From an uncultured Chloroflexia bacterium (lineage in GTDB: Bacteria > Chloroflexota > Limnocylindria > Limnocylindrales > CSP1-4), in NCBI GenBank assembly GCA_963819655.1, contig CAWFXA010000003.1, positions 544,001-608,000 on the forward strand: a DNA stretch of 64,000 nt, given 5' to 3'. The notes below the pieces were generated by a model, which had not been told where the DNA came from, ran no database searches, and saw nothing but the letters and a program-made list of their open reading frames with translations. Shown one piece after another: positions 6,456-9,641 of this stretch. Position numbers and translations under genes: made by a program. Position 1 is the first letter of the stretch. Every line of letters begins with the position of its first letter.

Positions 6456-7022
6456 ATGGCCCCGACCCGACGCGCCGGGCGCGCGACGACGATCGGTGGG
6501 GAGATCCTGACGTGGACCGAAGCCGTGGGGACTCGTGGGACGCGTTGGCGCGAGGCCCTGCAGCGAGACGGGACGCTCATCCGGTCGTTGCTGCTGGAGG
6601 TCTCGGCAGCCGGGCGGCCGACCCGACTCGAGATGACGACCGCGGCCGGGCTGCTCACGCTGCACCCGGAGCCGGACGAGTCGGCGCTGCACGGGAACGT
6701 CGTGAGGGGCGACGGGGTGGACCATCTTGCCTTCGCGTGGAGCGCGGACCATGAGCTGCTGGTCCTCGGATCACCTGCCTCGGCGACGATCGCGCTCCGG
6801 CGGCTCGCAGAACGGATCGTGGTGGGTGCGACATGGCCGCTCGATGTAGTGCGGATCGATGACGCGCTCGAGCCGCGCCCGGCGAGCTGGACGGCGGAGC
6901 GAGTCGCGCGGCATGCGTGGCACCTGCGCACCGTCGACGGCCTCGAGGAGCGCCGCCTCACCGTCGATGATCAAGGCCGGCCAGTGCTGACGGATGCGCT
7001 GACCTGGCCGCTCGAGGCGTGA
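6456..7022 (+). CDS. Hypothetical protein (188 aa, beta-rich)
   Basis: ATG 10 nt after the hflX stop with a G-rich upstream tract; host-like codon usage; no recognised motif. Confidence 0.6.
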   Translation: MAPTRRAGRATTIGGEILTWTEAVGTRGTRWREALQRDGTLIRSLLLEVSAAGRPTRLEMTTAAGLLTLHPEPDESALHGNVVRGDGVDHLAFAWSADHELLVLGSPASATIALRRLAERIVVGATWPLDVVRIDDALEPRPASWTAERVARHAWHLRTVDGLEERRLTVDDQGRPVLTDALTWPLEA

Positions 7023-7023
7023 C

Positions 7024-7085
7024 TGTGGGAACCGTGTGGACAACGCTCTCGTTCACGGGATGTTTGCGATGAAAGTCGTGGATAA
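7024..7085. promoter_or_regulatory. DnaA-box-like cluster 1 (three co-oriented boxes)
   Basis: TGTGGGAAC 7024, TGTGGACAA 7035 (= TTGTCCACA), CGTGGATAA 7077 (1 mismatch to TTATCCACA). Confidence 0.65.
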
Positions 7086-7090
7086 CCGCC

Positions 7091-7120
7091 TTGTCGCGGT
7101 GATGGCGCGCACCGTATGGT
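7091..7120 (+). promoter_or_regulatory. Sigma70-type promoter of RNA unit A
   Basis: TTGTCG (7091) - 18 nt - TATGGT (7115); predicted start G7128 is the first base of the terminal stem. Confidence 0.65.
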
Positions 7121-7127
7121 TGGTCTT

Positions 7128-7214
7128 GCCCGGAGGGGCCACGGACATCTAGCGATTTGATCGGTGTTTACATTGATCGGAGCGTCTAGTGATCGAGGTT
7201 CCTTCGGGCGTTTT
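7128..7214 (+). ncRNA. Candidate small structured RNA, copy A (~82-87 nt)
   Basis: GCCCGGAGGGGCC (7128-7140) pairs with GGTTCCTTCGGGC (7197-7209) using G-U pairs; apical hairpin 7158-7179; followed by GTTTT; paralogous to copy B. Confidence 0.7.
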
Positions 7215-7256
7215 CGTGTGTCCGGCGTCTGACCGATCCCGCCGCCGCAGACCCGC

Positions 7257-7317
7257 CGTGGATTACCCGTGGATAGTCCAGCTCGACAGAGCCCCGAATC
7301 ACGAAACTCGTGGATAA
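7257..7317. promoter_or_regulatory. DnaA-box-like cluster 2 (three co-oriented boxes)
   Basis: CGTGGATTA 7257, CGTGGATAG 7268, CGTGGATAA 7309; same spacing as cluster 1. Confidence 0.65.
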
Positions 7318-7323
7318 CACCAC

Positions 7324-7353
7324 TTCACAGACCTGAGTCCCACCGGCTACGGT
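7324..7353 (+). promoter_or_regulatory. Sigma70-type promoter of RNA unit B
   Basis: TTCACA (7324) - 18 nt - TACGGT (7348); predicted start G7360. Confidence 0.65.
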
Positions 7354-7359
7354 AGTCGT

Positions 7360-7448
7360 GCCCGAAGGGGCCGTGGACTGAAAGCGGCGATACCGGTGTT
7401 CTGCATCGGTGTCGATGGCTACGGACCGGCGGTTCCTTCGGGCGTTTC
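7360..7448 (+). ncRNA. Candidate small structured RNA, copy B (~84-89 nt)
   Basis: GCCCGAAGGGGCC (7360-7372) pairs with GGTTCCTTCGGGC (7431-7443); 11-bp apical hairpin 7388-7414; followed by GTTTC. Confidence 0.7.
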
Positions 7449-7505
7449 GTTGTCCGCGGCAGCCCGTGCGGCCAGAGCACGGGATCGCCAGTACCATTCC
7501 TGACC

Positions 7506-9641
7506 GTGGCATCGCCCCCGCCCTCGGACGCCCGCTCATCGTTCCGACCCGACATCGAAGGCCTGCGCGCCGTCGCCGTCCTGCTGGTCCTCGCGTATCA
7601 CGCGCGCGTGCCCGGCCTGACCGGCGGCTACATCGGCGTCGACGTCTTCTACGTCGTGTCGGGCTTCCTCATCACCGGGCTGATCGTCCGCGAGCTCCAG
7701 GCGACCGGCCGGCTCGACCTGCCGGCCTTCTATGCGCGACGCGCGCGCCGCTTGCTGCCCGCGGCCCTCGTCGTGATCGCCGTGACGGTCCTTGCGTCGG
7801 CAGTCATCCTGCCGCCGCTGCGCATGGTCGACGTCGCCGGCGATGGCGCGGCCGCCGCCCTGTACGTGAGCAACATCCGGTTCGCGGCGCAGGCGACCGA
7901 CTACCTCCAGGCCGAGCTCGACCCGTCGCCGCTGCTGCATTTCTGGTCGCTCGGGGTCGAGGAGCAGTTCTACCTGTTCTGGCCGGCCCTCCTGTTCGCG
8001 GTCGCCGGCCGCCGGACGAGCGTGCGGCGGATCGGGATCGCGATCGCCGTCGTGGCCGCAGTGTCGCTGGTGCTGTCGATCGTGTGGACGTCGACCGACG
8101 CGCCCTTGGCGTTCTTCCTCCTGCCGGCCCGTGCCTGGGAGCTGGCTGTCGGGGCCGGGTTGGCGCTCGCCGCGACCCGGATCGCGCGGATCCCGGCGTT
8201 GGCCGCCACGGCGGCGGTCGTGGTCGGCCTGGCCCTCATCGGCATCGGCGCGGTGATCTTCGACCTTGCGACACCGTTCCCGGGGACCGCGGCCCTGGTC
8301 CCGGTGGCCGGCGCCGCCCTGGTGATCGCAGGCGGTCTGCGCCAGCCGCTCGGGCCGATCTCGCGGCTCGTGGCGATCCCACCGATGCGCTGGATCGGCG
8401 GCATCTCCTATTCGCTGTACCTGTGGCACTGGCCGTTGCTCGTGCTTCCGGCGGCGGCCGTTGGGGCGCCGTTGCCCGGCCCGGTCCGGCTCGCGCTCGT
8501 CGGGCTCACGTTCGTCCTCGCCGAAGCCAGCCGCCGCTGGGTCGAGGACCCGATCCGGCACGGGCAGATCTCGAAACTCAGGCCGTCGCGCTCGCTCGCC
8601 GCGGCCGGTGCGATCAGCCTGGTGGTCGCGGGCGTCTCGCTCGGGGCGGGTCGCCTCGCTGCTCCGCCGCAGCTCGCCGCCGCCACCGGCGGGCCCGTCG
8701 AGCTCGACCTGCCGACGCCGCTCCCTGGCCCGACTGACGCCCCGCGGGTCACGCCATCCGCGGGTGCGACACAGACCCCGAGTGCGACACCGACGCCTGT
8801 GATCGATCCCACCCGTGCCCCGACCGCTGGCGGCCCCGTCCCGGGCGACCTCGTGCCGTCGCTGGCCGCCGTGCGTGACGACATCCCGGTCATCTATGCC
8901 GACGCCTGTCACGCCGAGTCGCGCGAGACGCAGCCGCCGGCCTGCGTGTACGGCGAGGCCGGTTCGTCGACGTCCGTGTACCTCATCGGCGACTCGCACG
9001 CCGCGCACTGGTTCCCCACGTTCGAGCGGCTGGCGAGCGAACGTGGCTGGCGGCTCGTCTCGCTCACGAAATCCGCCTGCCCGGTGGCCGACCTGCGCGT
9101 CTACAACGCGAGCCTCAAGCGCGAGTATGTCGAATGCACCGATTGGCGCGCGGCTGTCCTGCAGCGCATCGCCGACGAACGCCCTGCGCTCGTGGTGATC
9201 TCGGACAGTCGGGCGGGCAAGCTGTGGAATGATGGCACGCCGGTCGACACGACCGACCGGGAGGACCTGTGGGCGGCCGGTCTCGGCCGCGCGATCCGCG
9301 CGATCGACGAGGTCGCCGATCATGTGCTCGTCCTCGGCGACACGCCGAATCCCCTCGGCGATCCGCCGGTGTGCCTGTCGGACCACCTCGATGACGCCCT
9401 CGCCTGCGCGACCCCGACCTCGAAGGCCCTTGCGCCGCGACGGACTGCCACGGAGCGCGAGGTCAGCGCCGCGAGCGGCGCGACGTTCGTCGATCCGAGC
9501 CCGTGGCTGTGCCCGACCGAGCCGTGCCCGGCGATCATCGGGCGCGTGCTGGTGTACCGCGACGGCCACCACATGACGACGCCGTTCGCGTCGGCTCTCG
9601 CCCCATACCTCGAGCCGTTGCTGCCGGCCCTGCCGGGCTGA
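7506..9641 (+). CDS. Acyltransferase family 3 with C-terminal SGNH domain (OatA/OafA-like O-acetyltransferase)
   Basis: FRPDIEGLRAVAV, GVDVFYVVSGFLIT, HFWSLGVEEQFY, ISYSLYLWHWP, Pro/Thr linker, GDSHA and DGHH catalytic motifs. Confidence 0.93.
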   Translation: MASPPPSDARSSFRPDIEGLRAVAVLLVLAYHARVPGLTGGYIGVDVFYVVSGFLITGLIVRELQATGRLDLPAFYARRARRLLPAALVVIAVTVLASAVILPPLRMVDVAGDGAAAALYVSNIRFAAQATDYLQAELDPSPLLHFWSLGVEEQFYLFWPALLFAVAGRRTSVRRIGIAIAVVAAVSLVLSIVWTSTDAPLAFFLLPARAWELAVGAGLALAATRIARIPALAATAAVVVGLALIGIGAVIFDLATPFPGTAALVPVAGAALVIAGGLRQPLGPISRLVAIPPMRWIGGISYSLYLWHWPLLVLPAAAVGAPLPGPVRLALVGLTFVLAEASRRWVEDPIRHGQISKLRPSRSLAAAGAISLVVAGVSLGAGRLAAPPQLAAATGGPVELDLPTPLPGPTDAPRVTPSAGATQTPSATPTPVIDPTRAPTAGGPVPGDLVPSLAAVRDDIPVIYADACHAESRETQPPACVYGEAGSSTSVYLIGDSHAAHWFPTFERLASERGWRLVSLTKSACPVADLRVYNASLKREYVECTDWRAAVLQRIADERPALVVISDSRAGKLWNDGTPVDTTDREDLWAAGLGRAIRAIDEVADHVLVLGDTPNPLGDPPVCLSDHLDDALACATPTSKALAPRRTATEREVSAASGATFVDPSPWLCPTEPCPAIIGRVLVYRDGHHMTTPFASALAPYLEPLLPALPG

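Follow-up and report, generated by a model that had tools for sequence, protein, structure and literature searches.

What is encoded by two similar modules that lie side by side in the intergenic stretch 7023-7505 of the 64,000-nucleotide (nt) DNA window analyzed here, which comes from an uncultured bacterium of the class Limnocylindria? The stretch is bounded by a conserved open reading frame (ORF, ending at 7022) and a gene for an AT3-SGNH acyltransferase (starting at 7506). Positions 7024-7451 are made up of two diverged modules with a period of 232-233 base pairs (bp). A repeat finder returned spacings of 232 and 234, and the modules align over 239 columns with a mean column identity of 77%; alignment and spacings together bear out the tandem arrangement that an initial annotation of this DNA had proposed. 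The answer that we favor, and hold with moderate confidence, is that the modules are two independent genes for paralogous structured RNAs, most likely activated by the replication initiator DnaA and belonging to a regulon.

The boxes, hexamers, spacers and predicted RNA starts and ends listed at the outset were all found at the positions given for them. Each module carries on the plus strand three boxes of the form (T/C)GTGGnnAn (GTGGAyAA type), a weak -35 hexamer, an 18-nt spacer, a TAnGGT -10 hexamer, a hairpin and a U-tract. In module 1, the distal box (7024-7032, TGTGGGAAC) lies at about -103 from the predicted start, the middle box (7035-7043, TGTGGACAA) is 11 bp from it at about -92, and the proximal box (7077-7085, CGTGGATAA) occupies -51 to -43, 5 nt upstream of the -35 hexamer. 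Predicted promoter 1 (7091-7120) consists of TTGTCG (7091-7096), the spacer and TATGGT (7115-7120), and is followed by small RNA 1, defined as type A (7128-7214), an 82-nt rod hairpin (7128-7209) with a G-UUUU tail. Module 2 has its distal (7257-7265, CGTGGATTA) and middle (7268-7276, CGTGGATAG) boxes in register with those at 7024 and 7035, a proximal box (7309-7317) that again reads CGTGGATAA, predicted promoter 2 (7324-7353, with TTCACA at 7324-7329 and TACGGT at 7348-7353) and small RNA 2, of type B (7360-7451), an 84-nt rod hairpin (7360-7443) with a G-UUU-CG-UU tail. Both RNAs begin with GCCCG(G/A)AGGGGCC (at 7128 and 7360) and close with GGTTCCTTCGGGC (7197-7209 and 7431-7443), after which come G and UUUU or G and UUU.

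Several lines of evidence indicate that these hairpins are under selection as RNA. On the plus strand copy 1 folds at -48 kcal/mol (z score -6.35) and copy 2 at -58.4 kcal/mol (z score -6.47), and 0/200 dinucleotide shuffles folded as well. Minus-strand folds are far weaker (-28.7 and -35.7 kcal/mol, z scores -3.67 and -3.32), so the strand asymmetry that G-U pairs had suggested is real. Between the two copies 7/35 base pairs are altered on both sides, in line with the compensatory changes reported earlier. A covariance model built from the two window copies (R1) scores small RNA 1 at 94.7 bits and small RNA 2 at 100.6 bits; homologous loci score 44-100 bits in sense orientation and 29-36 bits in antisense. 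The alignment of 116 R1 matches, of which 105 are distinct, has 95.6% of its cells paired, and 26/35 pairs vary on both sides. None of 500 shuffles reached the values observed for the 105 sequences, and pairing dropped to 33-45% when one partner was slid by 1-3 columns as a control. This alignment was fitted to the model, and hence 31 diverse members were aligned separately with MAFFT and folded freely with RNAalifold; the same rod was recovered, with 18/30 pairs varying on both sides. The search of relatives with a two-copy model, a check that the initial annotation had suggested, thus yielded homologues that covary, and by this comparative evidence the hairpins are real RNA genes. Stop codons lie in all frames inside invariant stretches, which upholds the early view that there is no credible ORF and, together with the covariation pattern, argues against a peptide-coding reading.

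Each RNA forms a rod of about 35 bp with bulges of only 1-2 nt. The first 13 nt pair with the last 13 nt in a nearly invariant terminal stem (GCcCGAAGGGGC/GUUCCUUCGGGC), in which 6/13 pairs never vary among the 105 sequences and two adjacent G-U pairs are retained in 103/105 and 105/105. Above it lies a middle section that contains an A-A mismatch and is invariant in sequence within both types, reading CGaACAUCUAG with CUAGUGAUCG in type A (invariant consensus CGAACAUCUAG / CUAGUGAUCG) and GACCGaAAG with CUACGGACCG in type B. The upper stem is free to vary in sequence while pairing is maintained by compensation, and the apex is mostly GGUGuUUaCAUc, with a GCAA loop instead in one subclade. In both types the invariant stretches are inside helices, the loop measures 3-4 nt and hardly any single-stranded sequence is conserved. 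The double-stranded middle section of type A is identical in members from a different order, which implies that its sequence is selected and not its pairing alone. Because the invariant part is double-stranded and almost nothing conserved is single-stranded, protein binding is favored over seed pairing. When targets were sought as complements to the type A invariant stretch, no site was convincing, and a lookalike found on contig C1 was unlike the family.

Full-length R1 matches are present in 59/61 genomes of the genus, with one or two copies in each and four in one genome; the genome of the window (G000) has only two by BLAST. Tandem pairs 227-443 nt apart occur in 16 genomes and pairs about 1 kilobase (kb) apart in three (R1 results table), and in other genomes the copies are tens of kb apart (>40 kb) or on separate contigs. 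Wherever copies are in tandem, type A precedes type B. The low copy number, the constant A-B order, the strand-specific fold, the covariation among homologues and the conserved promoter and terminator described below all agree with the paralogous small-RNA pair that had first been postulated. With 1-4 copies per genome and a conserved promoter, we rejected a dispersed repeat of the miniature inverted-repeat transposable element (MITE) or repetitive extragenic palindrome (REP) kind. Beyond the genus, R1 detected the RNA in 16/20 genomes and 7/9 genera of the family, in 3/4 genomes of one genus from another family of the class and in 0/20 genomes of a small-genome sister family. R2, a covariance model from 116 sequences, matched 7/11 genomes of the two positive families and none of about 109 genomes from 39 other Chloroflexota families. 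Among the matches listed, contigs with the terminal-stem pattern have titles naming Chloroflexota, mostly Candidatus Limnocylindria or Limnocylindrales, and at least three are labeled as other phyla, perhaps through mis-binning. By these searches the RNA family is confined, in the genomes covered, to the class Limnocylindria of the Chloroflexota.

The RNAs had initially been described as unrecognized, with a search of Rfam as the natural check. No Rfam 15 family matched the 64-kb window at the gathering score, and at E values up to 10 the interval 6900-7600 gave only chance-level matches, one to MIR839 (14.8 bits, with 200 needed for gathering) and one to P4 (9.1 bits, with 37 needed). Two housekeeping RNAs were considered by name. 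6S RNA, whose rod of about 180 nt opens into a large central bubble in imitation of an open promoter, was rejected, the rods here being 82-84 nt long with bulges of 1-2 nt and RF00013 having no match in the genome at E values up to 1. Signal recognition particle RNA was also rejected, as the genome's own copy is located elsewhere. These comparisons identify the window RNAs as a real, previously uncatalogued family of sibling small RNAs.

Both RNAs appear to have their own promoter and terminator. We collected 190 distinct upstream regions, selected by the RNA ends only. A sigma-70-type -10 element (TANNNT, 6-8 nt before G+1) is present in 187/190, and the position-frequency table has T/A at -13/-12 and T at -8. 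TTGNNN at a spacing of 16-19 nt was found in only 62/190, the -35 hexamers being weak matches to consensus. A simple sigma-70 consensus scan at threshold found 0 promoters between 6800 and 7700, a result that weighs against the assignment; because of this empty scan and the weak hexamers, the promoter call rests on comparative conservation. At the other end, the sequences of an intrinsic terminator are found in both copies (GGGC, G and UUUU at 7206-7214; GGGC, G and UUU at 7440-7447), and a U-tract (four or more T within 8 nt of the RNA end) follows 184/190 homologues. Terminal stem and U-tract together look like an intrinsic terminator, unusual in that it encloses the whole RNA.

The likeness of each hairpin and U-tract to a terminator raises the alternative that the copies are not genes of their own and instead serve the upstream gene as a double terminator, act as attenuator or leader for the acyltransferase gene, or represent a dispersed MITE- or REP-like hairpin repeat. 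Copy 2 ends 55 nt ahead of the acyltransferase start, as a leader might, but the acyltransferase lies downstream at just 13/154 homologous loci. An 82-nt rod with invariant sections far exceeds what a terminator needs, the -10 element keeps a fixed distance across the homologues, and the copy number is too low for a dispersed repeat. We regard this alternative as very unlikely. Given the conservation of -10 element and U-tract, the rarity of the acyltransferase downstream and the fact that the copies are separable, the comparative data argue that the two RNAs are independent genes.

RNA libraries offer a further view of the locus. Four metatranscriptome runs from four studies each gave one contig of about 150 nt that spans all of copy 2 (7350-7502, 7323-7465, 7307-7449 and 7284-7461), and the contig 7307-7449, which stops at the terminator, has adapter at either end. 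All four contigs begin upstream of the predicted start at 7360 (7284-7350) and one extends beyond the terminator to 7502; these ends count against independent transcription of copy 2 and are a point for the alternative of a terminator or leader. The contigs would fit read-through from copy 1 or DNA carry-over just as well. RNA-library pieces on copy 1 derive from relatives, and the runs cover only small shares of the stretch, so that uncovered parts are uninformative.

If the RNAs have their own promoters, what controls them? Counting as a box any site within one mismatch of GTGGAYAA, the proximal box is present at -53 to -47 in 160/190 upstream regions, the middle box at -96 to -86 in 143/190 and the distal box at -108 to -97 in 46/190. 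Together these regions hold 362 boxes in sense orientation, against 9 in antisense and 8 in shuffled sequence. Across the family the consensus reads GTGGA(T/C)AA, with a conserved core of 8-9 nt, and the modal spacings of 42 and 11 bp would place the boxes on one face of the helix. Exact GTGGAYAA occurs three times in the 64-kb window, always within 7036-7317; at least three occurrences anywhere were seen in 11/100 shuffles. A general promoter element of stable RNAs was rejected, as a box precedes just 1/50 transfer RNA genes. From the weak -35 hexamer and the conserved site 5 nt upstream of it, we infer an activator-dependent promoter layout.

Use of the box differs between the two types, with a proximal box in 62/63 type B and 33/59 type A genes. 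The exceptions weigh against a fixed coupling: the proximal box is missing from 30/190 promoters, nearly all of which belong to type A (where 26/59 genes lack it), and boxes are altogether absent from the three type A copies inspected in another order, from which it follows that the coupling would be lineage-specific and dispensable for the RNA. Box-less type A genes (loci L040, L043, L047 and L049) have another conserved motif, GATGCGCCTGT(G/A)A(T/C)GG, at about -75. This motif suggests a swap of regulator in some lineages.

The same layout recurs elsewhere in the genome. Three further, unlinked genes share a box at -50 with more upstream, a -10 element, GGTCTT before the start, the 5' sequence GCCCGRAGGGGC and the 3' sequence CUUCGGGC, which brings the set to at least five small RNA genes including the window pair. 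RNA-a (73 nt; locus L188, 3301-3373; contig C2, 63800-63872) has the loop GCGAUCGCAUCAA, scores 32 bits with R2 and is present in 27/30 genomes of the genus. RNA-b (183 nt; locus L189, 3680-3862; contig C2, 1026679-1026861) has an invariant 12-bp terminal stem and BLAST matches in 10/40 genera of the family; its consensus fold branches into multiple hairpins, with GAGCGAUC and CGCAAGG as conserved loops, and a role as stand-in for 6S RNA was rejected since the fold is branched and not a rod. The RNA-c locus (L187, 3560-3793; contig C2, 1280560-1280792, with the RNA at 1280719) is flanked by moaA and a gene for a purine nucleoside phosphorylase, encodes a 74-nt RNA with the loop GAGAUCACAUCAAGG and is present in 26/30 genomes of the genus. 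The 120 bp or so upstream of RNA-c contain five boxes of the DnaA type, in both orientations, one of them an exact TGTGGATAA, the reverse complement of the DnaA-box consensus TTATCCACA. The flanking genes of the three RNAs are unrelated, and Rfam gave no match on the three loci.

Is the box a DnaA box? Against the DnaA consensus, CGTGGATAA (7077 and 7309) and TGTGGACAA (7035) match at 8/9 positions and the other boxes at 6-7/9. The genome encodes a canonical DnaA of 462 amino acids (E value 1.2e-139 to chain 8btg_A), with a domain IV that aligns to 1j1v and 3pvp and conserves the motif GNRDHSTVLHACDKI, which we take to resemble the signature of Escherichia coli DnaA. The sequence GTGGATAA occurs 14 times in the 3.49-megabase genome (69% guanine plus cytosine), and 5/14 of these sites are in promoters of the small-RNA set. 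A strict pattern of box, -35 and -10 had 4 matches in the genome and 0 for a reversed control; three are small RNAs of this set and the fourth is the promoter of rsmG (gidB), where a box precedes TTGACG/TACGGT in the same layout (locus L202, 890-1040; contig C2, 398387-398540). Exact TGTGGATAA is found twice in the genome, once in the RNA-c cluster and once directly upstream of parA-parB. There it forms an inverted pair of DnaA-type boxes with a near-consensus CGTGGATAA 35 bp away, in a relatively AT-rich stretch (locus L186, 4026-4072; contig C3, 935525-935571). Two closed genomes of the family also have box pairs with the same spacings, including the parAB type, and the pair upstream of parAB is a candidate origin-proximal or DnaA-regulated site.

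Two other observations were made at such loci. The rsmG leader is structured-looking over about 60 nt or more and has no Rfam match. A further locus (L203, 1121-1181; contig C3, 98620-98680) has four boxes of DnaA type, spaced at 11-13 bp, ahead of a TAGGAT -10 element, followed by an untranslated stretch of about 170 nt and an ORF without Pfam match; a box pair with the 24-bp spacing seen there was also found in one closed relative. Rfam on two box loci outside the sibling RNA set gave no match.

Against these points stand several results. The roughly 500 bp upstream of dnaA hold no box within 2 mismatches of the consensus, GC skew is too weak for placing an origin, and two complete relatives show no genome-wide enrichment of GTGGAYAA (67 against 56 for the control in one, 43 against 58 in the other). 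The possibility thus has to be weighed that the same small RNA genes are controlled by another transcription factor, in which case the regulon would report something besides replication status. Candidates would be a winged-helix response regulator reading 11-bp direct repeats, as the two distal boxes form one, or a regulator specific to Limnocylindria, which would suit the lineage-specific use of the box; the bare dnaA upstream region and the lack of enrichment point the same way. Set against such a factor are the conserved 8-9-nt core, which equals the DnaA-box consensus, the placement of the genome's only two exact 9-mers at the RNA-c cluster and parAB, and the rsmG/gidB promoter with its shared layout. 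One named candidate, MraZ, was tested and rejected: the motif at the genome's own mraZ promoter is AAGTGG three times with a 10-nt period downstream of the -10 element, whereas the boxes here are GTGGAyAA at spacings of 11 and 42 bp upstream of the -35 hexamer. We consider another factor possible, though the less probable reading, and DnaA probably the protein that binds the boxes. The coupling of transcription to DnaA proposed in the initial annotation therefore stands in part: conserved box positions, the match to consensus, a canonical DnaA and the motif at rsmG/gidB and parAB speak for it, but the missing cluster upstream of dnaA and the box-less copies of type A and of the other order do not fit it. 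DnaA control of the small RNAs is plausible on these sequence patterns.

The three AAGTGG repeats of the mraZ promoter (contig C3, 913615-913650; loci L265/L266) are a textbook MraZ operator in Chloroflexota. The dnaA gene (contig C2, 470150-470660; locus L183) sits after rnpA-rpmH as usual, and parAB and rsmG lie on other contigs or distant from dnaA, such that the usual gene cluster of the origin is dispersed. A replication origin at the RNA locus itself was rejected, with no AT-rich unwinding stretch seen by eye, an uninformative GC skew and dnaA on another contig.

The clustering of boxes allows one more alternative, in which the loci act mainly as DNA and the boxes titrate or recycle DnaA in the manner of datA/DARS or the Bacillus subtilis clusters, with short, strongly terminated transcripts that only modulate occupancy. 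There are 2-5 boxes per locus at at least five loci, the RNA-c locus with its five boxes in both orientations being the fullest case, and intergenic clusters of Bacillus subtilis bind DnaA stably according to PMC2533591. But compensatory changes and invariant sections show strong selection on the structure of the RNA, which also persists in genes without boxes, so the transcript is not a by-product. We think it improbable that the loci function chiefly as DNA.

The reading we prefer, with two DnaA-activated RNA genes, can be put as follows. Each RNA gene would be transcribed from its own promoter with a weak -35 hexamer, and this promoter would be activated by a protein, most likely DnaA, on three boxes of the same orientation at about -50, -92 and -103. 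RNA output would then track the replication initiator, through either its level or its nucleotide state. In this genome the regulon would comprise at least five small RNA genes and the rsmG and parAB promoters. The rods most likely use their constant stem and middle section to bind a protein and would not act by seed pairing with mRNA. That partner is wholly inferred, and two negatives weigh against it: Hfq was not found in the genome, and the Ro/TROVE domain PF05731 had no match (E values up to 0.01) in the 91%-complete G000, with a positive result for the Deinococcus control.

The siblings may act differently. Hairpin loops of RNA-a, -b and -c have GAUCRCMUCAA in common, in one to three copies per RNA (including loci L191-L198). 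In some genomes the loop motif reads GAUCACCUCAA, and it is close to the 3' end of 16S ribosomal RNA, GAUCACCUCCUU (contig C2, position 1622083), which suggests pairing with ribosome-binding or start-codon regions. A wider reading, which we advance tentatively, is that in Limnocylindria DnaA drives at least five small RNAs built on one scaffold (a common start, tandem-G-U terminal stem and terminator) with interchangeable interiors, the rods serving as protein handles or decoys and the siblings acting on ribosome-binding sites through loops that resemble the 16S 3' end. Initiation status would in that case be passed on to translation and RNA metabolism.

How do these RNAs compare with known systems? 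PrrF1/PrrF2 (controlled by Fur), OmrA/OmrB (OmpR) and LhrC1-4 (LisR) are tandem sibling small RNAs. As in those systems, the genes here are homologous and arranged head to tail, each with its own promoter, regulator site and terminator, and more unlinked siblings are found elsewhere in the genome. Unlike those RNAs, which expose single-stranded seeds and mostly need Hfq, the rods are almost fully paired, the genome has no detected Hfq and the box is of the DnaA type; nor is there any relationship in sequence or Rfam family. An accessible conserved single-stranded seed is absent from types A and B, whereas RNA-a, -b and -c have their conserved loop motif. Y RNAs of Ro ribonucleoproteins are about 80-110 nt long, with a conserved terminal stem as protein handle. 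They resemble the RNAs here in size, in paired 5' and 3' ends (here the 13-bp stem), in a variable interior, in a 3' U-tail and in having several paralogues per genome, sometimes in tandem. They differ in that no TROVE/Ro gene was found in this genome, no Rfam Y RNA matches and the stem sequence is unrelated; without a TROVE gene found, identity as a Y RNA of a Ro ribonucleoprotein was rejected.

The box clusters have precedents of their own. datA and DARS of Escherichia coli and the clusters of Bacillus subtilis are DnaA-box clusters. DnaA-regulated promoters, too, have several consensus-like boxes just upstream, as the RNA genes do. In PMC13438810, gidAB-parAB of Pseudomonas aeruginosa is reported to be regulated by DnaA, and the same motif stands before rsmG/gidB and parAB here. 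The difference is in the products, which here are small structured RNAs and were not found as DnaA targets in the literature searched. CcnA of Caulobacter crescentus, as presented in PMC8959179, is a non-coding RNA timed to the cell cycle and linked with CtrA and GcrA. It offers a parallel for a candidate tie between a non-coding RNA and cell-cycle master regulators, and it is unlike the present family in being a single, unrelated RNA described in connection with CtrA and GcrA. The Chloroflexi-1 motif (RF01698) likewise comes from Chloroflexota and is a candidate structured RNA, for which PMC2864571 lists Chloroflexus aggregans alone, but it has no match to the RNAs here even at E values up to 10.

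Neighboring genes give little sign of shared function. The conserved ORF upstream of the RNA locus comes after hflX, and near the RNA hflX is found at 95/154 loci and the ORF at 92/154. A functional link of the RNA to either was rejected, since neither flanks the RNA in another order or in genus g5, and the neighborhood is, on this distribution, synteny by descent. The upstream ORF itself (188 amino acids, 6456-7022, plus strand) has a stop codon that abuts the first box. It has no Pfam or NCBIfam match, and a language-model look-up, the one method to place it, set it beside clusters partly annotated as PF06475 (glycolipid-binding); no role was assigned.

Neither this RNA nor any small RNA driven by DnaA is described in the literature searched, which did not extend to supplementary motif lists, and we know of no small RNAs from promoters with several conserved DnaA-type boxes. 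The family numbers more than 100 distinct sequences, covaries strongly and has clear taxonomic limits, and it merits a new entry in RNA databases. The host lineage is abundant in soil and freshwater and uncultured, its RNA regulation is undescribed and Hfq was not found in it. The scaffold common to five genes raises the question of which protein reads the invariant terminal stem. If DnaA controls these small RNAs, the replication initiator would act through them directly on post-transcriptional control. On the wider, tentative reading given above, the set would constitute a replication-coupled riboregulatory layer that, as far as the literature searched shows, is undescribed in any bacterium.

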